This document shows positions 14,548 through 64,000 of a DNA stretch of 64,000 nt, one piece after another. Each line of letters begins with the position of its first letter. The first letter of the stretch is position 1. A program made the translations under genes and the position numbers. This stretch comes from Caldisericia bacterium (GTDB lineage: Bacteria > Caldisericota > Caldisericia > UBA6126). A model generated the notes under the pieces. The model made no database searches. It was not told the DNA's origin and saw only the letters and a list, made by a program, of their open reading frames with translations. The stretch is taken from positions 6,506 through 70,505 of the forward strand of contig JAGLCW010000105.1 of the NCBI GenBank assembly GCA_023146045.1, read 5' to 3'.

Positions 14548-14564
14548 CTATTAATCCTTTAATT

Positions 14565-15833
14565 TCATTGCAATGTACCGCTTATAGCCGAATAAATGCA
14601 TTTGTCGGTACTTGCTATGGCAGTTTGTACACCAAGTAACTCTCTCGAGTACCTAAGCATTTTAACGCTATTGGAAACCATTCTTGGAAAACACGGATAG
14701 CTAATATTGTAAGTTTCACATATAGTTTTTCTCATGTGAGATTCCACTGGGCATGTATCTGCAATAACTTTAGCTCCAGCTTTTTCTATGATGGAAATAT
14801 ACCCAGAGTATTTTGCTTGCATTCTTGTCATTCTATTTGTGCAAATCCAGAGCATTGTGTTCGCGGCAATTCTTTTACCTTGAAGTTTTTCTGAGTAATA
14901 CCTAATATCTTCCAAGTTAGCATGGGGGCATCCAAGAACAACTATATCTACTTTAGAATGTTTTTCTATCATATTAAAATCTAGATAAGCTTCTTCAATA
15001 TCTTTTATGCCTATTTCATGGAATGAATCAAGATTTCTGTAATCTTTGGCTTTACCATGGTTCATTGATTGAATTTCAGGTGTTACTCCAGCTATATGAA
15101 ACAATGTAACTGACCCTGAAGTTGCCATGGCGGCTCCAAAAGTTATTGCTTGAGAGGTTGTTGGCGGAGAGTTAATACCAAAAATTAGTGGTACCTTTCC
15201 ACCAGCTGTTTTACCAATAATGTATCCCAAAATTGACCACTGGTCCATTGTTTGTAGCATACTCATTGGAATATTTATGTCATAATAGCAGTTTGGCTCT
15301 CTGTTTTCATCGAGCATGTACCCCATGGCAGGATATTTGCCTGTAATTGAAGAATAGCGGGTAAATAGACCACCTCTGTTAGTTCTTGCGCCTAATATGC
15401 TGTTAAAATATATAATAGCGCTACTTTCTACTGAAACAATATGTGATCCGAATAATGGTACAAAACCAATTTGTTGAGGAGTGCATGTAAATGTTTCTAA
15501 AATACCCATTTTTCTAAATGCTGTTTCAGTTTTTCTTTGTTTTGTGACAAGATCTATTGGACAGTCTGTTATACTAGGATATTCAAGGTCACAGCAGAGT
15601 GTAGAGCTAGTTGTTGGAACGGCAACCTTGATGTTGCTATTAGAATACTTCTCAACGTCTTCGCAAAACCCATCATATATTCCCATTTCAGCAGGATAAT
15701 GACAGTATGATACATTTAATAGGTTTTCTGCTCCAAAAGCATCCCCAAATTGCACAAGATAGTCTAATGCTTGTGCTTTAATTAATCCTTCTTTTCCATC
15801 GAGTATTCTTTTTTCTTGATCTGTTAATTTCAT
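14565..15833 (-). CDS. Aconitase X catalytic (large) subunit, DUF521. Putative mevalonate-5-phosphate dehydratase or cis-3-hydroxy-L-proline dehydratase family.
   Basis: 422 aa. The N-terminus (MKLTDQEKRILDGKEGLIKAQALDYLVQFGDAFGAE.L..VS) has the characteristic AcnX large-subunit signature. Cys-rich Fe-S ligand regions are present. Confidence 0.65.
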   Translation of the reverse strand: MKLTDQEKRILDGKEGLIKAQALDYLVQFGDAFGAENLLNVSYCHYPAEMGIYDGFCEDVEKYSNSNIKVAVPTTSSTLCCDLEYPSITDCPIDLVTKQRKTETAFRKMGILETFTCTPQQIGFVPLFGSHIVSVESSAIIYFNSILGARTNRGGLFTRYSSITGKYPAMGYMLDENREPNCYYDINIPMSMLQTMDQWSILGYIIGKTAGGKVPLIFGINSPPTTSQAITFGAAMATSGSVTLFHIAGVTPEIQSMNHGKAKDYRNLDSFHEIGIKDIEEAYLDFNMIEKHSKVDIVVLGCPHANLEDIRYYSEKLQGKRIAANTMLWICTNRMTRMQAKYSGYISIIEKAGAKVIADTCPVESHMRKTICETYNISYPCFPRMVSNSVKMLRYSRELLGVQTAIASTDKCIYSAISGTLQ

Positions 15834-15834
15834 T

Positions 15835-17547
15835 TTAATTTTCTAACGATGATTCAGGGATAATTTCTACTGAAAGATAACTCTCTTTTCCTGGCTCGTG
15901 AAAAATTGTTTGAGTTGCAATTTCAGACTCAACTGCATCTGCTTGAAATTCTTTTGTGTTTGTGTGTGGATAGAATTTCGGACAAGCTGACGAGCTTATC
16001 TCTAACCTAATTCTATGACCTTTTTTAAATTTTATACCTGTAGCCCACATGTCAACAACTAAATCGTATATTTCGTCAGGATTTAACCATTCTGGTTTTT
16101 CAAGAGAATTTCTAAATTCAGCTCTTTTAACTCCATCACATATCTGTATTGCTTTACCGTTTGGATGAACATCGACAAGTTTACCAGTAAAATCTGTTCC
16201 TGGAGCTGTTGACTTTATATTTAGGTGTAGAAAAACTCTACCACAAATAGTTATATCTGAAAGCAATTCATTTGTGGAATAAACCAGAACATCTTGCCTG
16301 CTTTCTATAGATTGTTGATCACATGCTTCACCAAGCTGTAGGCTTACGGGGTCAGTAACATATGGAACTGGATTCTTAGGATCATATTTATATGAATCTT
16401 TACCACCTATTTGAGTTGGTGGAGAATATGTAAGTGTGCCATCTCCTGACACAGAATTTGCACCCATAGAACTATTAATATACAGTTTTGTTTTTTTTGC
16501 TTCTGGAATTGGCCAATCATTGAATGTGTACCATTTATTTTCTCCCATTATGAAAATGTTACATCGTTTGTTGGAATTAAGAAATTTAGAATTAGATTCT
16601 AAAGTTTCATTAGCAAGATGTTTGGCAAAAAAAGTAAGTAGTTGTGTATTTAAATCAATAAGAGAACTTGGACCAAAATCTACTTCACCACAACTTGTAC
16701 TTTGATTTAACTTGTGAGGCCATGGACCAATAAGGAGTTTTTGAGAGTCTTTAGCTGTATCTGTTTTGGCATTTTTTCTCATACCAGGAAAGTTTTTGTA
16801 TGTAGAAATACCATCATCGTCGTACCATCCGCAAATATGGAAAATAGGAATATCACATTTATTCCATTTGTCCATGTAGCAAACTTTTTTCCACCAAGCA
16901 TCTTTTGTGGCATGATTCATCCAGTTGCTCCATGTTGTGTCATTTTCCATTCCGACTTCTTTGCTCATTTTTCTTAGTGGTCTGAAGTTATATAGTCGTG
17001 GCCAATCAATAAAGGAAATATTTTGGTTAGTTTTACCATAAACCATAAGACCCCAAACTATCATATTCCAGAAAAATGTTCCATCCTGATAAGGAACATT
17101 TATTACTGGATCTGGTAGTGGGACTAGTGGTGCGATTGCTTTTAATGATGGGTGCGAATCTGGAGCCTCTATCCAAGTTGTGTAGCCCTCGTAGCTTCCA
17201 CCTGTCATGCCAACGTTTCCATTACAAAATGATTGTTTGCTTATCCAATCTATTGTGTCCCACCCGTCTTCTCTTTCTGTCCTGAATGGTTCCCAAGTTC
17301 CATCACTATCAAATCTTCCTCGGCAATCTTGAAATACAAAGCCAACTCCACGTTCTGCCATCCATTTTTTCATTGCCAACCTTCTAGGATCATTATTACC
17401 ATAAGGAGTTCTAGTTAACACAATTGGAAAAGGACCTATTGCTTTTGGCAAAAAGATGTCGGTTGAGAGCGATACCCCGTCTCGCATTTTTACTTTTACG
17501 TCTATAATCTGCACTAGGTCATACTTTGGCAATAAACTAGTAATCAT
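15835..17547 (-). CDS. CocE/NonD-family alpha/beta hydrolase (Xaa-Pro dipeptidyl-peptidase-like)
   Basis: 570 aa. ...GMTGGSYEGYTTW... is a nucleophile-elbow-like GxSxxG. The N-terminus (DGVSLSTDIFLPK...PVVLTRTPYGNN) and C-terminal beta-sandwich match the CocE/NonD (X-Pro dipeptidyl-peptidase) family. Confidence 0.65.
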   Translation of the reverse strand: MITSLLPKYDLVQIIDVKVKMRDGVSLSTDIFLPKAIGPFPIVLTRTPYGNNDPRRLAMKKWMAERGVGFVFQDCRGRFDSDGTWEPFRTEREDGWDTIDWISKQSFCNGNVGMTGGSYEGYTTWIEAPDSHPSLKAIAPLVPLPDPVINVPYQDGTFFWNMIVWGLMVYGKTNQNISFIDWPRLYNFRPLRKMSKEVGMENDTTWSNWMNHATKDAWWKKVCYMDKWNKCDIPIFHICGWYDDDGISTYKNFPGMRKNAKTDTAKDSQKLLIGPWPHKLNQSTSCGEVDFGPSSLIDLNTQLLTFFAKHLANETLESNSKFLNSNKRCNIFIMGENKWYTFNDWPIPEAKKTKLYINSSMGANSVSGDGTLTYSPPTQIGGKDSYKYDPKNPVPYVTDPVSLQLGEACDQQSIESRQDVLVYSTNELLSDITICGRVFLHLNIKSTAPGTDFTGKLVDVHPNGKAIQICDGVKRAEFRNSLEKPEWLNPDEIYDLVVDMWATGIKFKKGHRIRLEISSSACPKFYPHTNTKEFQADAVESEIATQTIFHEPGKESYLSVEIIPESSLEN

Positions 17548-50111: not shown

Positions 50112-50198
50112 TATTATAAAAAAATTAGCATAGAAGTTAAAGATTATCTATGAAAGGCTGTCATGGCTTTTTATTATTTGTTTCTCAGGGGGGACTTG

Positions 50199-53144
50199 AT
50201 GAAAGCAAGAACAAACAAAGTTTTAAGTGTTATTCTTTCCGTAGTACTACTAGGAAGTATTTTTTCTGTTTTTAAAGCAGAGCCAGTGTCTGCTTTAAAA
50301 AACTTTGTAATGACCGTGCAACCAAGAAAAGTAGCAACAAGATCTACTTACAAGTTTAATGTTACAATCGAGAAAAGACTTAAAGTGCACGAAGCTGTTA
50401 CTTTGGTTTGGCCTGCTGGAACTATTATTGATCCACCAATACCAAAAGATGAGAAAAAAAAGAAAGAACGTTTAACTCAAATTATTGAGTCGATGTCTAT
50501 AGGACTTTCACCTTGTTCTGCGTGTCAAGGGTTACCAAAAATTACTACAACTCCTGATGGAGGAATTCAGCTTGTATTTAATACTCATATTGAGTTAAAT
50601 CCAGAAATTGAAGGTTATTCAAATATAGTAGTCACTGTGCCTGATACATGTGGTTTTGTAACTCCTCCTGAGCAAGGAGAATATATGTGGAGGTTCTCAA
50701 CTGGAGCAGAGCCAACATTGGTTTCTTCCGCTCCATTTATGATCGTAACTAGTGCAATAGGTGTGCCAGAAGGTATGCCAGAAGTAGAAGTTAAACCTTC
50801 ATCTTTCCGTGCCAACGCATCTTACAAGATTGGTTTTAATGTTGGACAAGGTGGATGGCTTCGTGAAGGAGATGGACGAATTAGAGTTAAATTTCCTGAA
50901 GGAACTTTGTTCTCAAAAAAAGAAATCAAAGAAAAATATATTCTTGTTAATGGAAAACCTTTAGTTAATCCACCACTTGCCGTTAGAACTCAAATGACAT
51001 TTATTACACCAGTAGGGGTTGCTGATGGCGGTAGAATAGTTATTGAAATTAGTGAAGGAGCCGGTGTCGTCAACCCATCAAAACCTGGCGAATATACTTT
51101 GCAAGTTTCTACAATTCCTGCTGACAAGGAATGGGTAGAGTCTATACCTTATTTAATTGAAAAAGGTGGAGCATTGTTAAAGATAGTTCCAGCAAAAGTA
51201 AATAAAAATGCACAGTATTCTTTTTCATTTATTCTTGAACCAGGAAAATCTTTAGCTCCAAGTGGGAAAATTAATGTAAAATTCCCAGAAGGTACCGTAG
51301 TACCAACAAGCCTAGATAAAACCAAAATTACAATTGGTGGAAAACCAGTTTCTTCAATTGCAGTTAAAGGTATGGAAGTTGAGTTAAATTCAGCAGTATC
51401 TGTTGAAGAAGAAGATGCCGTAGATGTTGTTTTTGGATCTGAAACTGGAATCATGAATTCAAAAAAGGCTGGAGAAGTAAAACTAGGCTATAAGTTGGAA
51501 AGCGACAAAGATTACTTACTAACATCACCTGTTGAGCTGATTGAATCTAGACTAGAAATAGAAGACGTAATGAATGATCCAAACAATGCACACTCAATTT
51601 CCGAATGGACAATTGATGGAATGGTTGGCGATAATGGAGCATTGAAAAAAGGTGATTTTATTGCAATCACATTCCCTGAAAATGTGGAAATACCAGAAAA
51701 AATATCCGCCGAAACAATTACTATTAACGAAGAAACAGTTTCAAAAGTAACCGTTAAAGGTCAAACAATTGAAATCTCTTTGAGTGAATCAATTTCCGGT
51801 GGAGAAATATTTAAATTAGTTGTAACACTAGATGCGGGAATTAGAAACCCAAATGAAGAAAAAGTAGGATATACATTAAGTGTTTACACATCTGTTGAAA
51901 AAAATCCTGTTTTAACCCCAACATTCTTTACTACACCAGCATTACCAGAGGCTAAGTATAAAATATCTGGTGGAGAAAAAGGTGAAGATGGTTGGTATTT
52001 AAACCCACCAGTAGTAAATTTCTTCTGCGACGACCCAACAGCAGTAATCAAGCTTTATTGGGACGACAAAGATAATCAGATTATTACTTTTGGGGGAGAT
52101 GCAAAACCTCTCGATATTGGTCAGTATGAATCACGTATTACATATTGGGCAGAATCTATCACAGGTGTAGAACCTCCAAAATCATTTGTAGTTAAAGTAG
52201 ACACAGTTTTGCCTGAAGTTGTTATGAGTTCTCCAGAAGAATTAAAAACAATTACTACCGAAGCAACAATTAAAGTAGAAGGTCGTACTACGCTCATTGC
52301 AACCATTCGTTTTGGTGTGGATTCACTAGAGTATGACTTGATTGCATTCATTAATGGAGAAAATGTGGTTGTTAACCCCGAAGACGGAACTTTCTCAAAA
52401 ATGGTTGACTTAAAAAACGGGCTTAACAAAATTGAAGTTTTAGCAAAAGACGAAGCAGGTCACAAAAAGATATTAAACTACGAAGTTATGTTTGACATTG
52501 AGCCACCTGAAATTGATGTTACATATCCAAAAGAAGGCGAAGTTGTAACAAAGAAACGTTTCGAAGTTACAGGGAAAACTGACCCAACAGCACAACTAAC
52601 AATTGATGGTGAATTTGTTTATTTAGAAGAAGACGGTTCATTTGCGTACGAAATGACACCAAGAAAATTAGGCAAATTAACTATAGAGTTGATTGCTACC
52701 GACCCAGTCGGTAATGTTACAGCAAAGAAAACTAATTTTACTTTTGGTTATACAATCATTTTGGCTATAGGTAAAAAAACTGCAACAGTAAACGGAGAAG
52801 TCCAAGATTTATCTATGACACCAATTATTCAAAACGGTAGAACGCTTGTTCCTTTTGGTTTCATAGCAAGAGCTTTAAATGCAGAAGTAGGATTTACAAA
52901 ACATCCTATAACTAAAAACGTTGATACAGTTTCATTAGAACTTGATGGAACTAAAGTAATACTTACAATAGGATCAAAGATTGCAAAAGTTAACGGTAAA
53001 GATATGGAAATGGATATTGCTTGTCAAATAATTAGCAGTAACACAATGGTACCAGTTCGCTTTGTTACCGATAGCTTAGGTGCAGAAATTGGTTGGGAAG
53101 GAAAATCTCAAACAATAACTATTACCTATCCTAAAGTAAGATAA
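50199..53144 (+). CDS. Large secreted/surface protein with multiple beta-sandwich repeats and C-terminal copper-amine-oxidase-N-like (CAO-N) domains
   Basis: Start at the ATG at 50199 after a GGGGGGA RBS. Signal peptide present. Repetitive VxFPEGT... beta-strand units. C-terminal NGRTLVPFGFIARALNAEVGF and SNTMVPVRFVTDSLGAEIGWEG repeats. Confidence 0.5.
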   Translation: MKARTNKVLSVILSVVLLGSIFSVFKAEPVSALKNFVMTVQPRKVATRSTYKFNVTIEKRLKVHEAVTLVWPAGTIIDPPIPKDEKKKKERLTQIIESMSIGLSPCSACQGLPKITTTPDGGIQLVFNTHIELNPEIEGYSNIVVTVPDTCGFVTPPEQGEYMWRFSTGAEPTLVSSAPFMIVTSAIGVPEGMPEVEVKPSSFRANASYKIGFNVGQGGWLREGDGRIRVKFPEGTLFSKKEIKEKYILVNGKPLVNPPLAVRTQMTFITPVGVADGGRIVIEISEGAGVVNPSKPGEYTLQVSTIPADKEWVESIPYLIEKGGALLKIVPAKVNKNAQYSFSFILEPGKSLAPSGKINVKFPEGTVVPTSLDKTKITIGGKPVSSIAVKGMEVELNSAVSVEEEDAVDVVFGSETGIMNSKKAGEVKLGYKLESDKDYLLTSPVELIESRLEIEDVMNDPNNAHSISEWTIDGMVGDNGALKKGDFIAITFPENVEIPEKISAETITINEETVSKVTVKGQTIEISLSESISGGEIFKLVVTLDAGIRNPNEEKVGYTLSVYTSVEKNPVLTPTFFTTPALPEAKYKISGGEKGEDGWYLNPPVVNFFCDDPTAVIKLYWDDKDNQIITFGGDAKPLDIGQYESRITYWAESITGVEPPKSFVVKVDTVLPEVVMSSPEELKTITTEATIKVEGRTTLIATIRFGVDSLEYDLIAFINGENVVVNPEDGTFSKMVDLKNGLNKIEVLAKDEAGHKKILNYEVMFDIEPPEIDVTYPKEGEVVTKKRFEVTGKTDPTAQLTIDGEFVYLEEDGSFAYEMTPRKLGKLTIELIATDPVGNVTAKKTNFTFGYTIILAIGKKTATVNGEVQDLSMTPIIQNGRTLVPFGFIARALNAEVGFTKHPITKNVDTVSLELDGTKVILTIGSKIAKVNGKDMEMDIACQIISSNTMVPVRFVTDSLGAEIGWEGKSQTITITYPKVR

Positions 53145-53162
53145 TGATGCTTGGAGGCGGTT

Positions 53163-54572
53163 ATGAAGATTAATTTTAAAAAGTCTGTCGGTTTGTTCGT
53201 TATATGTGTGCTCACATTCATTTGTGCATTTACAGGTTTTGAGCCATCATATAAAGTATATGCTGCCGACGGTGACGACTTCATACCGTCTCCTTCTCCA
53301 GTTATAGTAGAGCAGTTTACTGGTGGTTGGTGTGGAGCATGTCCGTATGCATCAGCTGGAATTCATTACAGTCAAATGGTTTTAAATGGAGAAGAGGATG
53401 TTTTTGTACATCTGGCTTATCACTATAGAGATTCCTTGGCTACTGCAGATACTGAAAAACGTGCTGGACAATATGACATAACAGCGTATCCAACAGTGAT
53501 TATTGGTGGATTAACTAAAATGATTGGTGTTCCATCAAAGGATGGTTATTTAGATTTTGATCAGTATGTCGAAGTTATTAGAGAATATTCCATGAATAAG
53601 TCAACTGTTGCTGATATAGAACTGGTTGCCGATTTTGATTCTCATTCTTTCAATGTAAAGGTTAAAGCAAAAGAAGATTTCGGTAAAAGAAAAATCAATA
53701 TTGTTGCTGCAATCTATCAAGATTGGGTTAACTGCCAATTGAAAAATGGAGCAAGTTTTAATAGAAACACTGTAAGAAAAATGCCGTACGGCGTTTCAGG
53801 AAAGCCAATAAAATTAAAAGCAGACCAGATTTACGAAGAGACTAGAAAATTTGTTCTTACAACTCGTGCTTCTGAACAGTGTGGAATTGTTGTTTTCTTG
53901 CAAGACCAAGACACTCAAGAAATTGTTGGGTCAGCTTTATATAAGTTTGCTACTAAAAAAACAGCGTTGTTTTATTGGAATGTACCACAAATGGGAAACC
54001 AAGAGAAAAATACTTGCCTTGGTACTATGACTTTCAAAGTTATAAATGCAACAGATTTGAAGAAAGTTTACATTAAATTGCACAAAGTCGATGAGTATTT
54101 CTCTTTAAAAGCTGTTGCATTATCAAAAGCATTGAAAGACAAAGCAACGATTGATTTTAATGCAAGAAAATGGGAAGTGACTGTAGAATTTAATGAACCA
54201 TTCAATGGCTCTGCAGATATTTTTAATCTTCTAGTGAACTTCAAAAAAGAGTCTGGTGATTACGGAATAGTTTTTAAATTGATTCAATTCATGGCTTCCG
54301 ATAGCAGTAAAAACAGTGTGCCTTTTGAACTCATTGACCTTTCTTTCTTTAGCGGTGTTCACATATCGCCAAATCCATATGATTTAGATGAGAACGGTAC
54401 AATTGATGAAAATGATGTAATTGTTGTTGAAAAAGCTTTTGGAACAGAAAAAGGCGATAAAGAATTTAAGAAACAGTGTGACTTTAACAAAGATAGAAGA
54501 ATAGATCTTGAAGACTTAAATGAGTTAATGCATAAAGAGGGCTGGAGAATTTTAAAAGAATATCAAGATTAA
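53163..54572 (+). CDS. Secreted thioredoxin-fold (CxxC) protein with C-terminal dockerin-like double Ca-binding loop
   Basis: GGAGG RBS, then ATG at 53163. Signal peptide present. FTGGWCGACPYASAG...AYPTVIIGG (thioredoxin-like). C-terminal DLDENGTIDENDVIVV and DFNKDRRIDLEDLNELM loops. Confidence 0.5.
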   Translation: MKINFKKSVGLFVICVLTFICAFTGFEPSYKVYAADGDDFIPSPSPVIVEQFTGGWCGACPYASAGIHYSQMVLNGEEDVFVHLAYHYRDSLATADTEKRAGQYDITAYPTVIIGGLTKMIGVPSKDGYLDFDQYVEVIREYSMNKSTVADIELVADFDSHSFNVKVKAKEDFGKRKINIVAAIYQDWVNCQLKNGASFNRNTVRKMPYGVSGKPIKLKADQIYEETRKFVLTTRASEQCGIVVFLQDQDTQEIVGSALYKFATKKTALFYWNVPQMGNQEKNTCLGTMTFKVINATDLKKVYIKLHKVDEYFSLKAVALSKALKDKATIDFNARKWEVTVEFNEPFNGSADIFNLLVNFKKESGDYGIVFKLIQFMASDSSKNSVPFELIDLSFFSGVHISPNPYDLDENGTIDENDVIVVEKAFGTEKGDKEFKKQCDFNKDRRIDLEDLNELMHKEGWRILKEYQD

Positions 54573-54925
54573 TCTGAGAATAAAACTACAGCTACTGCAT
54601 ATTCTTTTTCGTGAGAAATGCTTAGTTGGAGTTGGTTTGAATATATTTCTTTCCGATTAGAAATAACAATAGGCCTGCCTTCTGGATCGTGTAAAATAGA
54701 CACATCTTTGAGGGCAGGTTTTTTTATATATTTACTTACTGCTTTTATATAGGCTTCTTTTGAAGAAAATTTACCGGCTAGCGTTTCGTAAACATTTTTT
54801 CTAACCTTGGCATCTATTAACTCTTTTTCACAACCAACAAACCTAACCCACCACTTGTAGCCATAGCGATCGCACATTTTCCTTATTCGTTCAATTTTTA
54901 CAATATCAATACCAATTGAAATCAT
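54569..54925 (-). CDS. acpS: Holo-[acyl-carrier-protein] synthase
   Basis: MISIGIDIVKIERI..., ...LAGKFSSKEAYIKA..., ...SISHEKEYAVAVV. 118 aa. Confidence 0.8.
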   Translation of the reverse strand: MISIGIDIVKIERIRKMCDRYGYKWWVRFVGCEKELIDAKVRKNVYETLAGKFSSKEAYIKAVSKYIKKPALKDVSILHDPEGRPIVISNRKEIYSNQLQLSISHEKEYAVAVVLFSD

Positions 54926-54954
54926 TATTTTCTCCTAAAAAGTTAAATAAAATT

Positions 54955-54983
54955 TTGCTTTTATTGACAGTATATAATATACT
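54955..54983 (+). promoter_or_regulatory. Candidate sigma-70-type promoter upstream of rpoB
   Basis: TTGCTT at 54955-54960 and TATACT at 54978-54983 with a 17-nt spacer. A TTGACA at 54965 and a TATAAT at 54973 are also present but too close to pair. AT-rich background, so weak evidence. Confidence 0.25.
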
Positions 54984-55087
54984 AAGTGTTTGTTAAATTA
55001 GATTTATTGATTTTTGGTATATTCTGGGATTACTATGGTTATTTATAGCCATGTAAACTTGTTTTATATGGTGATAAGGAGTATGTA

Positions 55088-58000
55088 GTGTCACAACAAT
55101 CATTTACTATACAGGATTTGAACAAAATTAAGCAAGATTTCTGCGCCCCTAATCTTCTGGAGATGCAGAGACAATCTTTTCAATGGCTTATTGATAAAGG
55201 GATTCAAGAGCTGTTAAAAGAATTTGAAGCTACAGATTCTAACTATGAGAGCGGGAAAGTTTTAGTGCGCTTTCTAGGGTACGAAATAAATGCTCCAAAA
55301 ATTACACCTTCTGAAAGCAAAACAAAAGGTAAAACATACAAAGGTGAGCTTAGATTATCTATAAGATTGACTAATACAGAATTAGGTGAAGAAATTCATC
55401 TTCAAGATAAGAATAAAAGGATCGCTGTTGGGGAATTTCCATACATGACTCCAACTGGATCATTTATCATAAACGGAATCGAAAGGGTCGTAGTAGGACA
55501 GCTAACACGTTCTCCAGGAGTTTATTTTGAAAAATCAATATCAGTAAAAACCGGAGATCCAGTATACAAAGCAACTATTATACCTGATCGAGGATCATGG
55601 ATTGAATTTGAAACAAACGAAGATGGAGCAGTTTTTGTGTTTCTTGATAAAAGGAGTAAAAAACTTCCAGCAACCATTGTTCTTAGGGCATTAGGGCTTA
55701 CTGATCAAGAACTTAAAGAAGAATTAAAAGATGATACAGTTGTAGAACTAAGAACAAACTCAAAAGAATTTTTTAGTGCAGCTGGAAAGGTTTTAGATGA
55801 CGATATCTACGACTTACAAACTGGAGAAGACCTTTATAAAAAAGGAACAGTTTTAACTCTTGATATTCTAGAAGAAATAGCAAAAACAAATATTTCAGTT
55901 ATTCATATATATGATAGAGCTTTGTCACGATTTGCCTTGGCAACACTCGAAGAAGACAATACAGAAGATGAAGAAAATGCAAAAAAATTAATATTTATGA
56001 AATTAAGACCAGGTGAACGATACACAAAAGAAAATGCAGATATCCAATTCAGACAGGTACTGACAGACCCAAGAAGAAACGACTTAGGTGAAGTTGGTCG
56101 TTTCAAAATGAATAAAAAACTAGGATTAAATTCCGAAGAAAGAGTAATTACCAAAGATGATTTGGTTAGAATAATTCAATACTTTGCTAAAATTGAGCAC
56201 AATACAGGTCAAACAGACAATAGAGATCATTTGGGGAATAAAAGACTTAGACTTGTTGGTGAATTACTTAAAAATAGTATGCGAATTGGTTTGCATAGAG
56301 TAATGAAAAACACATATGAAAAGATTTCTGTTACTCCTTGGGAAGAAATTCACAAACATACTTCAAACATAATTAACCCAAGACCGTTAGAAGCTTCAAT
56401 AAAAGAATTTTTCAGCATGGGTCAATTGTCACAGTTTATGGACGAAACAAATCCAATTGCTGCATTAACGCACAAAAGAAGAATATCTGCTTTAGGACCT
56501 GGCGGTTTACACCGTGAAAGAGCTGGTGCTGAAGTAAGAGACGTTCACCACTCTCACTATGGAAGAATTTGCCCGATTGAAACTCCAGAAGGTGAGAACG
56601 TTGGCTTAATAAATTCATTGGCTGTTTATTCAAAAATAGACGACAGAGGATTTATTGTAGCAACTTATAAAATAGTCAAAGACTGTCAAGTTCTTGATGA
56701 AACTGTGTCAATAATTGCCGATGACGAAGAAGATAAATTTATTGGTCAGTTTGATACTCCTATAGATGAAAATGGATACATTACTTCTGACGATGTGTTA
56801 TGCAGGCATGGTAATGTTTACGAGACTGTTCCAAAAGAAAAAGTAAATTTAATGGATCTTTCACCGTTGCAAGTGTTTTCTGTTTCGGCTGGATTGATTG
56901 CATTCTTAGAACACGATGATGCCAACAGAGCTTTAATGGGCTGTAACATGCAACATCAAGCTGTTCCACTAATTAAACCTGAAATACCATACGCTGGTAC
57001 AGGTCTTGAAGAGAAAGCTGCCGTTGACTCTGGAGCAGTTGAATTGTCTCCAGATGAAGGAATAGTGGTTTATGTGGATTCAAAACAAATTGCAATAGCC
57101 TCACCAGAGTATGGAACTGAAAAAGTATCTATTGGTGCTTTCAATGTGTCACTTATTGATAAAATTCTTGCTCAAGATATCCCCGGTATAGCAGAAATTG
57201 GTCAACCAATTACCGGAAATTTATTACATAAGCTTTTTTACGAAGGTTATACCTCGGTAGCGTATACAGATACTAAAGTATTTGAAAAAATAGATCTAGC
57301 CGAGCTTGTAATATATGAAAAAAATGAAGCATTAATCGGTCGCAAATTGATTGAAGATGTTTGTACATCAACCAACAAGGTTTTAATTGCAGCTGGCAGA
57401 GAAATCTCAAAAGGTCTTATTGACAGGCTGATTGGTGCTAAAATTGCCATGGTTAAAGTTGATGGGATTATGGGTGGAGAGGAAGAAGTACCAGTTTTTG
57501 AAATTAAATATATTTCAAAGGACAATATATCTACCGATAAAATTTTAGTTCACTCTGATCCTATGTATGAAAAAATACAATATGGACATCAGTTAACACC
57601 AACTGTTTTTTCCCTGCTCAAAGAAGGAAATACAAGAAATATTGTTTTAGTTTCTCCAGATGATTTAAAATATGCCGAACCATTTATTCTTTCACCAAAA
57701 CTCCACAAAAAAGCTTTATTGGCCGAGGAAGTTATTGTTGGTGCAGAAGTTATTGTTGGAAAAGATGAAGTTGTAACAAGAGACATGATAGTCAGTTTTG
57801 TTAAAAACAATATTGAAAAAATAACAATAAACAAAACAAAAAACATTGAACTTACTAAATTTAGACGAACAAACCAAGATACCGTTGTAAACAAATATCC
57901 TATGGTTGAAAGTGGCGATAGAATAACAAAGAAATCACCAATAATAAATGGCCAAGCCTGTGATAGAGGAAGATTGGCTTTAGGTCAAAATTTACTCACT

Positions 58001-59371
58001 GCTTATGTACCATGGCGTGGCTATAATTACCAGGATGCTATTGTTTTAAATCAAAGACTGGTTTCCGAAGACATACTAACTTCTTTACACATAAAAGAAC
58101 ATAAGGTTCAAGTAAGGGATACAAAAGTTGGACCACAAGAGATCACAAGAGATATTCCAAATGTACCTGAAGATCAATTGCGTAATTTAGATGAAGATGG
58201 AGTAATTCGTGTTGGTACAGAAGTTGGACCAAACGATATTCTGGTTGGTAAAATTACTCCAAAGGCTGAGAGCGAGTTTACACCAGAAATGAAGCTTTGG
58301 AGAGCTATGTTTGATAAAAAAGGTCAAGACGTAAAAGATTCCTCGTTAAGAGTCCCACCCGGAGACAGAGGAACAGTTATTGATGTTCAAATACTATCTC
58401 GCCAAGAAGAAGAAAATTTACCAATTGGTGTTAATAAAATTGTAAAAGTATACATAGGCGAAAAGCGAAAAATACAAGTTGGTGATAAGTTGTCTGGAAG
58501 ACATGGTAACAAAGGTGTAATATCTAAAATATTGCCAGTAGAAGATATGCCATACTTGGAAGATGGAACTCAGGTAGATATTGTATTGAACCCACTTGGA
58601 GTACCTTCTAGAATGAATGTTGGGCAGATTATGGAGTGCTTACTTGGTATACTTGCAAAAGAAACAGATTCATACTGCGTAACAACACCATTTGCTGGTG
58701 TTACCCCAGAAGAATTGTTAATGAAACTAGACGAAGATGGAACAACAGAACACGGGAAAAGAGTACTATATGATGGACACACTGGTGAGCCTTTTGAAAA
58801 TAAGGTAACCGTTGGGTATTCTTACATAATGAAGCTCAACCATATGGTTGAAGATAAAATTCACGCTAGATCAATTGGACCATATGCTTTAATCACTCAA
58901 CAGCCGCTGGGTGGTAAAGCTCAATTTGGTGGACAAAGATTTGGTGAAATGGAAGTTTGGGCACTAGAAGCTTACGGTGCTGCATACACATTAAACGAAA
59001 TGTTAACTATAAAATCTGATGATACAGAAGGCAGGGTCAGAGCCTATGAATCTATTTGCAATAGAGACTTGATTCTACCCAGTAGCAACCCTGAATCTTT
59101 CAACGTAATTATCAATGAACTTAAGGGTCTTGGTATAAAAATGGAAATCGTTGAAGATGAAACATTTAAAGAAGATAACTTTGAACTGAAATTACCAGAA
59201 GAGTTAACTGGTCGCGCTAACAACGTACCAGATGACCTAGATGCCGATTTCGAAAACTTTATAAATAGTGATTTAGAATTTACTGGTCTTTTAAAAGACA
59301 GCGAATCTGAAGACGATATTAGCAAAGATGTTGAAGTTACAAAAAATGTTAGCAAGGGGGACCAAAAATGA
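55088..59371 (+). CDS. rpoB: DNA-directed RNA polymerase beta subunit, unusually long (1427 aa) with lineage-specific insertions
   Basis: GTG start after AAGGAG. Universal RpoB blocks are present (GRHGNKGVISKI, NPLGVPSRMN, KLNHMVEDKIHARSIGPY, QQPLGGKAQFGGQRFGEMEVWALEAYGAAYTL). Large extra segments lie between the conserved blocks. Confidence 0.95.
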   Translation: MSQQSFTIQDLNKIKQDFCAPNLLEMQRQSFQWLIDKGIQELLKEFEATDSNYESGKVLVRFLGYEINAPKITPSESKTKGKTYKGELRLSIRLTNTELGEEIHLQDKNKRIAVGEFPYMTPTGSFIINGIERVVVGQLTRSPGVYFEKSISVKTGDPVYKATIIPDRGSWIEFETNEDGAVFVFLDKRSKKLPATIVLRALGLTDQELKEELKDDTVVELRTNSKEFFSAAGKVLDDDIYDLQTGEDLYKKGTVLTLDILEEIAKTNISVIHIYDRALSRFALATLEEDNTEDEENAKKLIFMKLRPGERYTKENADIQFRQVLTDPRRNDLGEVGRFKMNKKLGLNSEERVITKDDLVRIIQYFAKIEHNTGQTDNRDHLGNKRLRLVGELLKNSMRIGLHRVMKNTYEKISVTPWEEIHKHTSNIINPRPLEASIKEFFSMGQLSQFMDETNPIAALTHKRRISALGPGGLHRERAGAEVRDVHHSHYGRICPIETPEGENVGLINSLAVYSKIDDRGFIVATYKIVKDCQVLDETVSIIADDEEDKFIGQFDTPIDENGYITSDDVLCRHGNVYETVPKEKVNLMDLSPLQVFSVSAGLIAFLEHDDANRALMGCNMQHQAVPLIKPEIPYAGTGLEEKAAVDSGAVELSPDEGIVVYVDSKQIAIASPEYGTEKVSIGAFNVSLIDKILAQDIPGIAEIGQPITGNLLHKLFYEGYTSVAYTDTKVFEKIDLAELVIYEKNEALIGRKLIEDVCTSTNKVLIAAGREISKGLIDRLIGAKIAMVKVDGIMGGEEEVPVFEIKYISKDNISTDKILVHSDPMYEKIQYGHQLTPTVFSLLKEGNTRNIVLVSPDDLKYAEPFILSPKLHKKALLAEEVIVGAEVIVGKDEVVTRDMIVSFVKNNIEKITINKTKNIELTKFRRTNQDTVVNKYPMVESGDRITKKSPIINGQACDRGRLALGQNLLTAYVPWRGYNYQDAIVLNQRLVSEDILTSLHIKEHKVQVRDTKVGPQEITRDIPNVPEDQLRNLDEDGVIRVGTEVGPNDILVGKITPKAESEFTPEMKLWRAMFDKKGQDVKDSSLRVPPGDRGTVIDVQILSRQEEENLPIGVNKIVKVYIGEKRKIQVGDKLSGRHGNKGVISKILPVEDMPYLEDGTQVDIVLNPLGVPSRMNVGQIMECLLGILAKETDSYCVTTPFAGVTPEELLMKLDEDGTTEHGKRVLYDGHTGEPFENKVTVGYSYIMKLNHMVEDKIHARSIGPYALITQQPLGGKAQFGGQRFGEMEVWALEAYGAAYTLNEMLTIKSDDTEGRVRAYESICNRDLILPSSNPESFNVIINELKGLGIKMEIVEDETFKEDNFELKLPEELTGRANNVPDDLDADFENFINSDLEFTGLLKDSESEDDISKDVEVTKNVSKGDQK

Positions 59372-61443
59372 AGATTTATGATGCCAAAGACATCCGTAAT
59401 GTAGTTTTAGCAGGACATGGTGGTGTTGGTAAAACGTCAATTGTTGAAGCAATAGCTTACAACACAAAAACTACAGATAGATTTGGAAAAGTATTAGATG
59501 GCAATACTGTCTCAGATTTTGAACCAGAAGAGATTAAACGCCAGATATCTTTATCCTTATCTCTTGTTCCGATAGAGCATAAAGGAATAAAGATAAATCT
59601 TCTTGATTCACCAGGATATTTTGATTTTGTAGGTGAAGTAAAGGCTGCAATGAGAGTAGCAGATAGTGCAATCATTGTTGTCGATGTTGTTTCTGGGTCA
59701 CAAGCTGGAACAGAAAAAACTTTTCAATATGCTGAAGAAAATAATTTACCAACAGCATTTATTGTAAACAAAATAGATAGAGAAAACAGTAATGTACAAG
59801 AATGTACAGAAAAACTAAAAAACCAGTATGGTAAAAAATGTGCAAGAGTTCAAATCCCTTACTTTAAAGATAGAGTATATGAGGGAATGGTTGATATTAT
59901 TCACAGAAAGTATTTTTCCAAAGACGGAAAAGAAGGTGAATTGCCAGAGGAATTATCAGAAAAGGCTTTAAAAACTTATGTGAAGTTGCTAGAAACAGCC
60001 ATCGAAGTAGATGATGAAATTCTAGAAAAATACTTGGGCGGAGCCGAGATTTCTCATGCAGAATTTTTAAAGTGTTTTAAAAAGGCTATTAACCGAAGAA
60101 TAGTTTACCCTATTCTTTATTCTGCTGCTTTGCTTAATGAAGGTGCAGATTCAATATTAGATTTTATATTCACATATATGCCAAGTCCACAGGACCGTGG
60201 AGATGTTACTGCAATCAAGGAAGACAAGTCTGAAACAACTTTCAAAGTTGACAAAAATGGACCTCTTTGTGCTTTAGTTTTCAAGACAATGACAGATCCA
60301 TATGTTGGAAGAATATCTTTAGTAAAAGTTTTTTCTGGAACATTGAAAAGTGATACGAAAATATACAATTCAACTTCTGACGAAAACGAAAAAGTTGGTA
60401 ATCTTGCATCATTTATTGGAAAGAAAGAAGTAAAGTTAGACTGTATCCAAGCTGGTGATATTGGAGCTTTAACAAAGCTTAGTTTCACAAAAACTGGAGA
60501 TACACTTTCAGATACGGATAATAAATTGGACGTGGATTGGATTGCATTGCCAACACCAAATGCAAAAATGTCCCTCAAAGCTGAGAAAAAATCTGATGAA
60601 GATAAATTGGGCTCAGTACTTCCTAAAATCAAAGAAGATGATGTAAGCATTGTCATTGAAAGAAACCCTGACACTGGAGAAACAATTGTATGCGGTATGG
60701 GGGAAACACATCTTAATGTTGCAATGGAAAAAGCAAAAAGGAAATTTGGAGTTTCTTTTGTGTTAAGAGAACCTAAGGTTTCATACAAAGAAACTATCCG
60801 GAAAACAGTTAAGGTTGAAGGAAAACACAGAAAACAATCCGGTGGACATGGTCAATTTGGTCATTGTTGGTTGGAAGTTGGTCCTTCTGACAAAGGAGAA
60901 GCCTACCAGTTTGAAAATAAAATATTTGGTGGGTCAATACCAAAACAATATATTCCAGCAGTAGAAAAAGGAATTCATGAATCAATGAAATCAGGAAACC
61001 TTGCTGGATACCCAATAGTAAACCTAAAAATAACAATTTATGATGGTTCTTACCACCCTGTAGATTCTTCTGAGCAAGCTTTTAAAATGGCTGGTGCCAT
61101 AGCATTGAGAAAAGCATTAGATGCAGGTGGGACTGTTTTATTAGAGCCGATAATGAGACTTGCAATCCATATACCAGAAGAATACATGGGTGCAATCATT
61201 GACGATATGAATACTAAACGTGGAAGAATAATGAGCATGAATGTTGACAAAATTAAAGGTTGGCAGATTATTGATGCTCAAGCTCCATTGAATGAATTAA
61301 GCCGATTTATTACTGATGTTAACTCAATTTCTGGTGCCCGTGGTTTTTACGAAATGAAATTTTCCCATTATGAAGAGGCACCACCAAAAGTTGTGAAAAA
61401 AGTTGTAGAGCAGTCAAAAAAAGATGCTGAAGAAGCTATTTAG
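59368..61443 (+). CDS. Elongation factor G-family translational GTPase (EF-G paralogue, EF-G2/ribosomal-protection-like), located between rpoB and rpoC
   Basis: 691 aa. G1 is AGHGGVGKTS, G3 is DSPGY, G4 is NKID. Domain III/IV/V patterns of EF-G are present (...GMGETHLNVAMEKAKRKFG..., ...GGHGQFGHCWLEV...). The ATG overlaps the rpoB stop (ATGA). Confidence 0.8.
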   Translation: MKIYDAKDIRNVVLAGHGGVGKTSIVEAIAYNTKTTDRFGKVLDGNTVSDFEPEEIKRQISLSLSLVPIEHKGIKINLLDSPGYFDFVGEVKAAMRVADSAIIVVDVVSGSQAGTEKTFQYAEENNLPTAFIVNKIDRENSNVQECTEKLKNQYGKKCARVQIPYFKDRVYEGMVDIIHRKYFSKDGKEGELPEELSEKALKTYVKLLETAIEVDDEILEKYLGGAEISHAEFLKCFKKAINRRIVYPILYSAALLNEGADSILDFIFTYMPSPQDRGDVTAIKEDKSETTFKVDKNGPLCALVFKTMTDPYVGRISLVKVFSGTLKSDTKIYNSTSDENEKVGNLASFIGKKEVKLDCIQAGDIGALTKLSFTKTGDTLSDTDNKLDVDWIALPTPNAKMSLKAEKKSDEDKLGSVLPKIKEDDVSIVIERNPDTGETIVCGMGETHLNVAMEKAKRKFGVSFVLREPKVSYKETIRKTVKVEGKHRKQSGGHGQFGHCWLEVGPSDKGEAYQFENKIFGGSIPKQYIPAVEKGIHESMKSGNLAGYPIVNLKITIYDGSYHPVDSSEQAFKMAGAIALRKALDAGGTVLLEPIMRLAIHIPEEYMGAIIDDMNTKRGRIMSMNVDKIKGWQIIDAQAPLNELSRFITDVNSISGARGFYEMKFSHYEEAPPKVVKKVVEQSKKDAEEAI

Positions 61444-61487
61444 AAAAATTATGAGCATAATAAGTTCAACAAAAGGGGGTTCTCGTT

Positions 61488-64000
61488 TTGGATAAAAAAC
61501 AAAGACGAGATAACTTTAACAAAGCGCCTAAAGTAACCGATTATGAAGCCATTTCAATTCATCTTGCTAGTGCTGATGAAATTAAAGGTTGGAGTCAAGG
61601 CGAAGTAAAGAAATCAGAAACAATTAGTTATAGGAACTTTAAACCAGAGCCAGATGGACTATTTTGTGAAAGGATATTTGGACCGCATAAAGATTTTGAA
61701 TGTAGATGCGGTAAATACAAAGGAAAAAGATACGAAGGTGTTATTTGTGATAGATGTGGCGTTGAAGTAACAAGGGCATCTGTCAGAAGAGAAAGAATGG
61801 GACATATCTCATTGGCTGCTCCTGTAATTCACATTTGGTATCTAAAAACCGTCCCTTTCATCTCTCTTTTGCTTAATATGACTTCAAAAGCATTACAAGA
61901 AGTAGTCTATTTTGTTAAATACATAGTAGTGGATCCTGGTGATACAGATTTCAAAAAATGCGCAGTAATAAAAGATGATGAATATCGTAGAGCCATTGAA
62001 GAGGGACATTCTTTTGTAGCTGGAAAAGGTGCTGAATCTGTAAAGAAACTTCTTGATGGACTTGATTTATTGGCTTTACGTGAAGAATTAAAAGGCCAAA
62101 TGAATACTACATCACAGCAAAAAAAGAACAAACTAGTAAAAAGACTTAGCGTTGTTCAGGCTTTTCTTTCAACGGAAAGAAGTCCGAGCGATATGGTTCT
62201 TACTGTTGTGCCTGTTATTCCTCCAGATCTAAGACCATTGCTTCAGTTAGATGGAGGAAGATTTGCGACTTCAGACCTAAACACTCTTTATCAAAGAGTA
62301 ATTAACAGAAACAGTAGATTATCAAGACTACTTGAAGTGAATGCTCCAGACATTATGGTGCAAAATGAAAAAAGAATGTTACAAGAAGCTGTTGATGCAT
62401 TATTTGACAATAGTAAAAGGACAAGGCCAGTTCTTGGAACTGGAAATAGGCCATTGCGTTCTTTATCTGATATCTTAAAAGGTAAAGAGGGTAGATTTAG
62501 ACAGAACTTACTTGGAAAACGTGTAGATTTTTCAGGTAGATCCGTTATTGTTGTCAATCCAGATCTTAGAATTGATGAGTGTGGACTTCCAAAAGAAATG
62601 GTTTTAGAGCTGTTCAAGCCTTTTGTTATGGAAAGATTAACAAAAAAAGGACTTGCTCAGAGTTTACGTTCAGCAAAATTGAAAATTGAAAAATATGATC
62701 CTGTAGTATGGAGTGTTCTTGACGAAGTAATTAAAGGACATCCAGTTTTATTAAATAGAGCTCCAACTTTACATAGACTTGGAGTCGAAGGTTTTCACGT
62801 TACTATATGTGAAGGTAAGGCAATACAGATCCCACCTCTAGTATGTCCGCCGTTCAACGCCGACTTTGATGGTGATCAAATGGCTGTCCATGTACCGCTA
62901 TCAATTCCTGCTATTGTTGAGACAGAAACTTTGATGATGTCTAGTAGAAACTTAATGTCTCCTGCTAGTGGATTACCAAGTATGGCTCCAATACATGACG
63001 TTGTTCTTGGTTCATATTACTTAACACTTGAACCACAAGACTACAAAGCAAAAGCAAAAAACACAAAGTTTTTTTTCCATTCACTGGAAGAGGTTTTAGT
63101 AGCCAATGATTACAAAAAAGTTCTTGTTCATGATGTTATAAAAGTTTTAGTAGATGGCGAAACTGTGACTACTACCGCTGGGAGAGTTATCTTTAACATT
63201 TATTTGCGAAAACTTTTGAAAAAACTGAAACACGAACAGTCAGAGTTAGACTTTATTAATGAATCGATGACATCTAAGAAATTGAAAAGAATCATTGTGA
63301 AATTCTACCACAAATTTGGTGAAGAAATTACCGTTGAGTTTTTAGAAAAAATTAAAGAACTTGGATTTTACTATTCAACAAAACCAGGACTAACCGTAGG
63401 TATAGATGACATGGTAGAGTCACCAAAATTACAAGATAGAATTAGAAGTGCAGAAGAAACAGAGGTGCTTTTCAAAAAAGCATTTGCTGACGGTCTTATA
63501 TCTGATCAAGAAAGACATAAAAAGATAATTGACAACTGGAATAATTGTACTTCCGATATTAGAAAAGACGCTTTCAAGAATTTTGCTGCAACAAATCCAA
63601 TTCACATGATGGCATCATCTGGTGCTAGAGGAAACCCTTCACAGGTTTCTCAAATGGTAGGTATTCGTGGTTTAATGCAGGATCCAACTGGAAGAACCAT
63701 TGAGTATCCAATTAAAAACAACCTAAGATCTGGTTTAACTGTGTTAGAGTATTTTATTTCAACTCATGGTGCAAGAAAAGGACAGGCTGATACTGCATTG
63801 AAGACATCAGATTCTGGATATTTAACAAGACGACTTGTAGATGTTGCACATTCAGTTATTGTTAGAGAGAATGACTGCGAGCACATAGTCAAACATAAAA
63901 AAATTGCTGCTGGTAAAACAATCAGAAAAATAGCGCCTCAAATAGTAGGGCTATATTCTGATGCTGATATTCTTAATCCTGAAAATAAAGAACTATTTCT
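61488..64000 (+). CDS. rpoC: DNA-directed RNA polymerase beta' subunit (3'-partial; continues past window end)
   Basis: TTG start after an AAAAGGGGG RBS. A zinc-binding CRCGKYKG...CDRCGVEV is present. NADFDGDQMAVHVP is the catalytic Mg site. The translation is uninterrupted to the window end. Confidence 0.9.
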   Translation, partial: MDKKQRRDNFNKAPKVTDYEAISIHLASADEIKGWSQGEVKKSETISYRNFKPEPDGLFCERIFGPHKDFECRCGKYKGKRYEGVICDRCGVEVTRASVRRERMGHISLAAPVIHIWYLKTVPFISLLLNMTSKALQEVVYFVKYIVVDPGDTDFKKCAVIKDDEYRRAIEEGHSFVAGKGAESVKKLLDGLDLLALREELKGQMNTTSQQKKNKLVKRLSVVQAFLSTERSPSDMVLTVVPVIPPDLRPLLQLDGGRFATSDLNTLYQRVINRNSRLSRLLEVNAPDIMVQNEKRMLQEAVDALFDNSKRTRPVLGTGNRPLRSLSDILKGKEGRFRQNLLGKRVDFSGRSVIVVNPDLRIDECGLPKEMVLELFKPFVMERLTKKGLAQSLRSAKLKIEKYDPVVWSVLDEVIKGHPVLLNRAPTLHRLGVEGFHVTICEGKAIQIPPLVCPPFNADFDGDQMAVHVPLSIPAIVETETLMMSSRNLMSPASGLPSMAPIHDVVLGSYYLTLEPQDYKAKAKNTKFFFHSLEEVLVANDYKKVLVHDVIKVLVDGETVTTTAGRVIFNIYLRKLLKKLKHEQSELDFINESMTSKKLKRIIVKFYHKFGEEITVEFLEKIKELGFYYSTKPGLTVGIDDMVESPKLQDRIRSAEETEVLFKKAFADGLISDQERHKKIIDNWNNCTSDIRKDAFKNFAATNPIHMMASSGARGNPSQVSQMVGIRGLMQDPTGRTIEYPIKNNLRSGLTVLEYFISTHGARKGQADTALKTSDSGYLTRRLVDVAHSVIVRENDCEHIVKHKKIAAGKTIRKIAPQIVGLYSDADILNPENKELF

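Follow-up and report, generated by a model that had tools for sequence, protein, structure and literature searches.

An EFG II-type elongation factor G paralogue between rpoB and rpoC in a clade of Caldisericia

The genes rpoB and rpoC of the RNA polymerase (RNAP) core are among the most stable gene pairs in bacteria. In the stretch of DNA analysed here, a window of 64,000 nucleotides (nt) from a Caldisericia bacterium (GenBank assembly GCA_023146045.1, contig JAGLCW010000105.1, positions 6,506 to 70,505 of the forward strand), this pair is split by a gene for a full-length paralogue of elongation factor G (EF-G). What is this protein, how long has its gene stood at this place, and what might the place mean for its function? 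We find a second EF-G of the EFG II type, distinct from the housekeeping fusA product and kept between rpoB and rpoC throughout a deep Caldisericia clade, whose members are uncultured.

A second EF-G gene inside rpoBC

Using a six-frame list of open reading frames (ORFs) together with the raw letters of the window, we placed the three genes and their junctions as follows.

55088-59371, + strand: rpoB, GTG start, 1427 amino acids (aa); TIGR02013, 1399 bits; Pfam Rpb2 domains 1 to 7
59354-59361, + strand: Shine-Dalgarno (SD)-like sequence AAGGGGGA for the paralogue, within the 3′ end of rpoB and 6 nt before the ATG
59368-59371, + strand: ATGA, the paralogue start codon over the rpoB stop codon TGA; a junction of the termination-reinitiation type
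59368-61443, + strand: EFG II-type EF-G paralogue, ATG start, 691 aa, five domains (Pfam, NCBIfam)
61444-61487, + strand: paralogue-rpoC spacer, 44 nt after the paralogue's TAG, with the rpoC SD GGGGG at 61475-79
61488-64000, + strand: rpoC, TTG start, cut by the window end; TIGR02386, 1105 bits

The rpoC start is preceded by AAAAGGGGG at 61471-79, and the full rpoC can be read on the continuation (L094 12121-15993, 1290 aa) of a 75-kb ENA contig that encodes the identical paralogue. Sequence and ORF list agree to the letter with an initial annotation of this locus, which had described an EF-G gene overlapping rpoB in an ATGA, a gap of 44 nt and an rpoC with a ribosome-binding site of its own. 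Pfam and NCBIfam likewise confirm a five-domain EF-G homologue between rpoB and rpoC, with GTP_EFTU at aa 7-273, EF-G_D2 at 299-382, EFG_III at 394-466, EFG_IV at 469-585 and EFG_C at 590-678. The contiguity of rpoB, paralogue and rpoC is likewise sound: the same gene order recurs in six lineages, on contigs that were assembled independently and come from four sources (ENA, JGI, NCBI and Logan), which rules out an assembly chimera.

The initial annotation had further proposed that the protein is a second, specialised EF-G and not the housekeeping factor, and this proposal holds. A canonical fusA of 698 aa is encoded on the window's own contig (L094 16977-19073), in the str operon after rpsL-rpsG and 4.9 kb downstream; it scores 1009.4 bits on the EF-G equivalog model TIGR00484, and all of its G motifs are canonical. 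The paralogue is 37% identical to it and reaches 603.9 bits on the same model, under the curated cut-off of 659.4. Its full length and complete set of five domains would be equally at home in a housekeeping EF-G that had moved out of the str operon, an explanation to which we give virtually no credence: the str operon holds a canonical fusA both on this contig and in all relatives, the paralogue falls short on the equivalog (604 versus 659 bits), and its catalytic His is lost. Relatives do share the gene order, yet in none of them is the paralogue the sole EF-G. A relocated fusA is thus refuted by the fusA present on the same contig.

As to the kind of second factor, the initial annotation had named an EF-G2-type protein or a ribosomal-protection or rescue-type factor. 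The former option agrees with the EFG II signature positions described below, and the latter fails on profile scores. On tet_protect (NF012153), the paralogue scores 304.6 bits against a cut-off of 775, and on the Tet subfamily models 152-186 bits against cut-offs of at least 900. RF3, BipA and LepA models return 137, 162 and 125 bits, respectively, for cut-offs of 473, 757 and 534, so that each of these four types was rejected as far below its curated threshold. A Tet(M)/Tet(O)-like protection or antibiotic-resistance protein, or a spare EF-G insensitive to fusidic acid, is highly improbable. Family-level homology to the Tet proteins is certainly present (E 1e-90), but canonical fusA scores higher than the paralogue on the tet model (411 versus 305 bits), and the gene belongs to a core operon, with vertical inheritance and host-like codon usage. 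The top-scoring model for the paralogue, the generic EF-G subfamily model NF009381, says nothing about its type because canonical fusA reaches 800 bits on that model too, and we dropped it as a diagnostic.

A remodelled GTPase centre on an EF-G body

The EFG II subfamily was defined by Margus, Remm and Tenson in 2011 by a GhxxxGKT P-loop, a relaxed G2 motif with Ser for Thr, three substitutions in domain II and a number of further positions (PMC3150367). Genomes with EFG II always hold EFG I as well, normally in the str operon, and the G2 variant of Clostridia is RxxSI (PMC3150367). We mapped these positions, given in the numbering of Thermus thermophilus EF-G-1, through a HMMER alignment to Thermus EF-G, and counted motifs in 20 paralogues of the Caldisericia clade, 6 fusA products of the same clade and the 102 nearest homologues. 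The features of the paralogue that bear on its activity are listed here.

59407-59439, + strand: P-loop (G1), LAGHGGVGKTS; AHIDAGKTT in EF-G I and IIAHIDAGKTTT in clade fusA
59536-59556, + strand: switch I (G2), KRQISLS; a relaxed RGITI in which Ser61 replaces the Mg-coordinating Thr
59605-59628, + strand: switch II (G3), DSPGYFDF; Tyr84 (59617-59619) replaces the catalytic His of DTPGH
60838-60867, + strand: domain IV loop I, at the tip, SGGHGQFGHC; retained, with the clade-specific invariant Cys500
61045-61071, + strand: domain IV loop II, GSYHPVDSS; retained as in canonical EF-G

None of the canonical EF-G motifs DTPGH, AHIDAGKT and RGITI is found in the paralogue. The switch II His is the residue that the sarcin-ricin loop positions for catalysis. 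At this position, Tyr is present in all 20 clade paralogues and Tyr or Phe in 102/102 of the nearest homologues, as against His in 6/6 clade fusA products. Ser61 is likewise invariant (20/20), in a context that fits the RxxSI of Clostridia, whereas clade fusA reads RGITI.

All six type I positions that separate EFG I from EFG II are EFG II-like in the paralogue (G16, I25, S61, T307, G351 and K370), while clade fusA carries Ala, Thr, Thr, Ile/Leu/Val, Ser/Ala and Gly at the same places. That is, position 19, Ala in EFG I and Gly or another non-Ala residue in EFG II, is Gly16 here (Ser in 16 and Gly in 4 clade members; Ala in 6/6 fusA). Position 28, Thr in EFG I and Leu in EFG II, shows the conservative Ile25 (Leu in 16 clade members, Ile in 3, Phe in 1; Thr in 6/6 fusA), and position 64, where EFG II exchanges Thr for Ser, is Ser61. 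The domain II positions 316 (Thr), 360 (Gly) and 379 (Lys/Arg) correspond to Thr307, Gly351 and Lys370, with Thr in 20, Gly in 18 and Ala in 2, and Lys in 20 clade members. Agreement extends to the type II positions D224, V258, L272, K498, K499, E543 and G633, where the paralogue has D, I, I, R, K, E and S and the clade majority D, I/V, I/L, K, K, E and G, mostly exact or conservative matches. Judged by these positions, the paralogue is a new member of the known EFG II family and represents a Caldisericia sub-subgroup of it.

The initial annotation had pointed to the G4 motif as a departure from canonical EF-G. It does read NKID (59767-59778), but this is not diagnostic, because NKMD is the commonest form in clade paralogues (70%) and in clade fusA alike; we discarded NKID as a minor variant. 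Tyr84, the GHGGVGKTS P-loop and the RQISL switch I are changes on which the initial annotation had not remarked.

In its fold, the protein looks like an EF-G. An AlphaFold2 model built with 52 homologues (predicted local distance difference test score, 88.4; predicted template-modelling score, 0.83) adopts the extended, ribosome-bound shape, with template-modelling (TM) scores of 0.86-0.91 to EF-G structures bound to the 70S ribosome, 0.89 to Mycobacterium smegmatis EF-G2 on 70S, 0.88 to Bacteroides thetaiotaomicron EF-G2 and 0.82 to Thermus EF-G-2 (1WDT). Both domain IV loops, whose tips extend to the decoding centre in EF-G, are kept. Directly after the conserved His of loop I (GHC), the clade carries the invariant Cys500 (60865-60867), a position taken by Val in 100/102 other EFG II proteins and in all clade fusA products. 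In all, the clade has 23 invariant substitutions specific to it, Cys500 among them; 7 fall in domain III, and as a set they are scattered over all domains and form no single patch.

How does the protein compare with EF-G paralogues described before? It comes closest to the EFG II sub-subgroups of Clostridia and Chloroflexi (PMC3150367), sharing with them the GhxxxGKT G1, an RxxSI-like G2, the Thr/Gly/Lys set of domain II, a Lys-rich domain IV loop I and an EFG I in the str operon alongside; EFG II members from Bacillota and Chloroflexota are 41-51% identical to it. Unlike these, the Caldisericia paralogues form a monophyletic clade of their own, have the 23 clade-specific invariant residues and are encoded between rpoB and rpoC, not free-standing. 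T. thermophilus EF-G-2 (1WDT/2DY1) resembles the paralogue in fold (TM 0.82), in its GHxGxGKT P-loop and in the Tyr that replaces the switch II His (DAPGYGDF in 1WDT), yet the two are only 33% identical, and of the two Thermus proteins it is EF-G-1 (534 bits), not EF-G-2 (435 bits), that the paralogue matches better. A preprint reports that Thermus EF-G-2 hydrolyses GTP in a ribosome-dependent manner and translocates (bioRxiv 10.64898/2026.05.25.727771).

Mycobacterium smegmatis EF-G2 (9K0Z/9K10) shares the His-to-Tyr exchange in G3 (Tyr98) as well as an altered P-loop and switch I, at an identity of ∼34%. The same preprint describes it as a protein that has minimal or no ribosome-dependent GTPase activity, cannot recycle ribosomes, is dispensable for growth and acts as a stress-related regulator (bioRxiv 10.64898/2026.05.25.727771); this stress specificity differs from a gene housed in a core housekeeping operon. 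The EF-G2 of B. thetaiotaomicron (FusA2, 8DMF/7UVP) has the EF-G paralogue fold in common with the Caldisericia protein (TM 0.88) but only 31% identity, and its gene lies outside rpoBC. As summarised in PMC10294740, it has an impaired GTPase and supports GTP-independent translation, and its gene is strongly induced by carbon limitation via BT4338.

Conservation and descent of the arrangement

The proteins closest to the paralogue are 52-67% identical and, where named, come from 'Caldisericia bacterium' metagenome-assembled genomes (MAGs); the next tier, at 41-48% identity, belongs to Bacillota and Chloroflexota. A clade profile sets the clade clearly apart from all other proteins (at least 1211 bits within the clade, at most 924 outside). 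At a 75% identity threshold, the clade resolves into six lineages, for each of which genomic context was obtained, including the GTDB representatives L008-L010. Every locus that reaches far enough downstream has the order rpoB-paralogue-rpoC-rpsL-rpsG-fusA, as cross-checked by tblastn, continuing into tuf-rpsJ-rplC and further genes after fusA where the contig goes on.

The arrangement has persisted over considerable divergence. Across the six lineages, paralogue identity falls to ∼50% and RpoB identity to 58%, and the order is kept in L088/L089 despite other genes upstream of rpoB (leuS and a gene for a sodium:solute symporter-family (SSF) transporter, where other lineages have acpS and surface-protein genes). 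The junctions are conserved as well: rpoB and the paralogue overlap by 1, 4, 4, 14, 17 or 23 nt in the six lineages, the window and each of the five relatives examined have a GGAGG/GGGGG-type SD for the paralogue inside rpoB, and the paralogue-rpoC spacer measures 21-51 nt and holds its own SD. The rpoC start codon is TTG in the window, L001 (12107) and L006 (12098), and ATG in the other three lineages examined.

Outside the clade, we found neither rpoB nor rpoC within 10 kb of the EFG II gene in any of 77 loci of the nearest homologues from other phyla (0/77). The suggestion of the initial annotation that this might be a lineage-specific arrangement is thereby borne out, six Caldisericia lineages sharing an order that none of the 77 loci approaches. 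The Caldisericia locus and the secE-rpoBC-str-S10 cluster (PMC8046335) agree in the common strand of rpoB and rpoC and in the run rpsL-rpsG-fusA-tuf-rpsJ after them; unlike that cluster, the Caldisericia locus has rpoB and rpoC split by a 2.1-kb gene, and rplKAJL is not upstream. In the part of that source available to us, the insertions reported for the clusters of Gammaproteobacteria and Bacilli lie between operons or at rplL-rsmC, and none is mentioned for rpoB-rpoC (PMC8046335). In the literature searched, we found no description of a gene between rpoB and rpoC or of Caldisericota gene order, nor any mention of the arrangement in connection with EF-G2, though prior mention elsewhere is possible. 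The conserved position within rpoB-rpoC is unusual, lineage specific and apparently undescribed.

Three observations concern the reach and quality of this survey. No sequence named as Caldisericum exile came up in protein searches with RpoB and with the clade profile, in word-indexed lists that are not exhaustive; such negatives are to be read with care, because a paralogue of the L088 type was missed even when it was in the query profile. The L088 paralogue itself (14131-16194, 687 aa) is at most 60% identical to other clade members. In the AnMBR.bin291 MAG (L010 5746-12057), rpoB and the paralogue are each covered by two tblastn segments in a frameshift-like manner, which more likely reflects assembly or sequencing error than pseudogenisation.

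Where did the gene come from? In a neighbor-joining tree of the nearest EFG II-like homologues, rooted with clade fusA as outgroup, the Caldisericia paralogues were monophyletic in 50/50 bootstrap replicates; among these nearest homologues, the sister of the clade is a subgroup with Chloroflexota and Dehalococcoidales. Identity averages 0.64 among clade members, 0.46 against other EFG II proteins and 0.36 against clade fusA. In GC content (0.348), GC content at third codon positions (0.218) and codon usage, the paralogue cannot be told from rpoB and rpoC. From locus to locus, its identity drops roughly in step with that of RpoB. Two candidate origins were rejected on these grounds. A recent local duplicate of the downstream fusA is at odds with 36-37% identity to fusA, as against 46% to other EFG II proteins, and with the EFG II signatures; a recent horizontal insertion is at odds with the base composition and codon usage shared with rpoB and rpoC and with an identity that tracks RpoB. 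Identities, composition and the parallel with RpoB therefore argue for neither a recent fusA duplicate nor a recent horizontal arrival, and we read the paralogue as an old EFG II gene that was fixed once in the rpoB-rpoC junction and inherited vertically from then on.

The free-standing relatives have a neighbourhood of their own. In 22/64 non-Caldisericota loci, mostly from Bacillota, ctsR-mcsA-mcsB-clpC follows the EFG II gene on the same strand, with a gap of <700 nt in 15 of those 22; the 64 loci are those among L011-L087 whose DNA extends 1.5 kb or more past the gene (for example, L025 10001-17031, L020, L016 and L093 8001-15846). EFG II is recurrently linked to the class III heat-shock operon in these loci. 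A full-text search found no paper that links ctsR, mcsB and EF-G in clostridia.

Expression and possible roles

We found no terminator-like hairpin on the plus strand in either junction. Across rpoB, the paralogue and rpoC, the sole plus-strand terminator match is a weak stem of 5 bp within the paralogue gene, and matches in total are as many as in shuffled sequences. Rfam had no match in the junctions at E≤0.1, and the antisense ORFs 60117-60788, 59044-59355 and 62291-62617 had no Pfam match. Promoter-like sites are fewer than expected from shuffles. The best match in 14 kb lies in the rpoC-rpsL spacer (L094 16016-16043), an 11/12 fit to the sigma-70 consensus, TTGACA-16-TAGAAT, with an extended −10 TG, and points to a separate promoter for the str operon and its canonical fusA. 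Upstream of rpoB, the region of interest is this one.

54926-55087, + strand: acpS-rpoB intergenic region, 162 nt, AT-rich, with only weak consensus promoter matches

This region presumably holds the promoter and the 5′ untranslated region of the rpoB-paralogue-rpoC unit. Given the overlaps, the short spacers and the absent predicted terminator, the three genes are most likely co-transcribed, and translation of the paralogue is probably coupled to termination on rpoB. The stoichiometric co-expression with RNAP subunits and the role in transcription-translation coupling that the initial annotation had raised are conjectural.

These lines of evidence combine into an explanation that we consider probable as a whole, namely, an EFG II paralogue that serves as an auxiliary ribosome factor, fixed in rpoBC and co-transcribed with its neighbours. 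The five-domain, EF-G-shaped body would bind the factor site of the ribosome and reach with domain IV into the decoding centre. With a GTPase centre remodelled by the His-to-Tyr exchange, the GHGGxGKT P-loop and the switch I Ser, the protein would work as an auxiliary translocase or a factor for a particular ribosome state, and its ribosome-stimulated GTPase activity is most likely slow, altered or absent. It would do so beside the canonical EF-G, whose str-operon gene lies 4.9 kb downstream. Its gene would have been fixed between rpoB and rpoC in the ancestor of this deep Caldisericia clade and passed on vertically, transcribed within the rpoB-paralogue-rpoC message and translated in connection with rpoB termination. 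If indeed co-transcribed and coupled, the protein would be made constitutively with the RNAP core, not under stress as in Bacteroides, and its position in a core housekeeping operon argues for such constitutive expression.

Several points weigh against this explanation. The paralogue remains under the cut-offs of the two available EF-G2 models, with 597.5 bits for a cut-off of 890 on NF009377 ('EF-G-like protein EF-G2') and 516.4 bits for a cut-off of 1000 on the Bacteroidota EF-G2 model NF058620, which covers aa 1-510 only. The neighbor-joining tree was built from nearest homologues and holds no Thermus, actinobacterial, proteobacterial or spdEFG references. At 61244-61271, in the 3′ end of the paralogue, there is a 10/12 promoter-like match that relatives do not share, and a conserved internal rpoC promoter was rejected for this reason. 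Co-transcription and translational coupling are both inferred from spacing alone. The consequence of the His-to-Tyr exchange, finally, is ambiguous, and sequence by itself does not decide GTPase activity: of two proteins that share this Tyr, Thermus EF-G-2 is reported active and M. smegmatis EF-G2 is not.

The strongest competitor accepts the identity of the protein and disputes only the meaning of its position. An EFG II gene may have landed in the junction by chance and persisted there since its clean removal from an essential operon is hard, the protein functioning like any free-standing EFG II. This is possible, if on balance doubtful. Nearest homologues in the 77 loci from other phyla do work without linkage to rpoBC, the 23 clade-specific substitutions are scattered and form no single patch, and unrelated genes inserted into the transcription-translation cluster are known from elsewhere, for example tusDCB, bfd-bfr and nrdHEF (PMC8046335). 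A neutral position is harder to reconcile with an overlap and SD kept in six lineages whose RpoB identity goes down to 58%, and with a junction that survives reshuffled upstream synteny.

At the other extreme, the place of the gene could be the signature of a physical or stoichiometric partnership with RNAP, making the paralogue an RNAP-associated or transcription-translation coupling factor; we regard this as quite unlikely. Its gene position and apparent translational coupling to rpoB are all that speaks for it in the paralogue itself, joined by the additions to the clade RpoB, an insertion of ∼230 aa and an acidic tail. The sequence has no feature beyond the EFG II signatures and no extra domain (Pfam accounts for aa 7-678), and the model resembles EF-G throughout. 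Genes for homologues in other phyla show no linkage to those of RNAP, and we know of no EF-G family member that binds RNAP directly. In a more elaborate form, the paralogue would have been recruited as an RNAP partner, be produced in RNAP-like amounts from the rpoBC message and tune or maintain transcription-translation coupling without using GTP, a scenario we hold to be very unlikely. The same low expectation applies to its possible modes of action, on the ribosome trailing RNAP or through contact with the insertions of the beta subunit, with the gene's place as the mark of the partnership.

Division of labour offers another reading, in which the paralogue is a dedicated ribosome-recycling factor that shares tasks with fusA in the manner of Borrelia EF-G2, spdEFG2 and mitochondrial EF-G2. 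Such a division between EF-G paralogues is documented elsewhere (PMC3150367; bioRxiv 10.64898/2026.05.25.727771), but for the Caldisericia protein it seems unlikely. According to that preprint, mitochondrial EF-G2 keeps the catalytic His and the G motifs, which the paralogue does not, and M. smegmatis EF-G2, with the same Tyr, cannot recycle (bioRxiv 10.64898/2026.05.25.727771); clade fusA, for its part, encodes a complete EF-G I that has kept all its motifs. The auxiliary ribosome factor, constitutively supplied from the rpoBC message, thus remains our preferred reading.

That a whole deep clade keeps a gene inside so stable a pair as rpoB-rpoC is a rarity, and the gene can serve to mark this Caldisericia lineage by its synteny. 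The function of EFG II is still unsettled, and here one natural lineage keeps an EFG II in a core housekeeping operon, in contrast with its starvation control in Bacteroides and its place beside the CtsR heat-shock operon in many Bacillota. This position suggests that EFG II may be a constitutive part of the expression machinery in some bacteria. If a functional link between RNAP and the paralogue were true, it would open a new angle on the coordination of transcription and translation.

The rpoB gene and its surroundings show peculiarities of their own. RpoB has a lineage-specific insertion of ∼230 aa (aa ∼678-905; 57119-57802) between regions matched by the rpoB model, and this insertion accounts for a length of 1374-1427 aa in the clade, as compared with 1091-1268 aa for the next most similar RpoB proteins, from Bacillota. 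It ends in an acidic C-terminal tail of 72 aa (aa 1356-1427; 59153-59368) with 23 Asp and Glu versus 8 Lys and Arg residues. Neither insertion nor tail has a Pfam match. The length of the tail varies among relatives, and its DNA carries the SD and the start codon of the paralogue.

Upstream of rpoB, the window lacks rplK-rplA-rplJ-rplL. A divergent acpS gene for holo-acyl carrier protein synthase (118 aa; 54569-54925, minus strand; ACPS Pfam match) stands there instead, and acpS and the spacer are kept in most clade lineages, L088 having leuS and the SSF transporter gene in their place. Further upstream, two large putative surface proteins are encoded at 50163-54572, in a region syntenic in several relatives. 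One, of 993 aa, combines Glucodextran_B with copper amine oxidase N-terminal-like domains; the other, of 473 aa, has a dockerin at its C terminus, along with a weak match of the Omp28/thioredoxin-like type.

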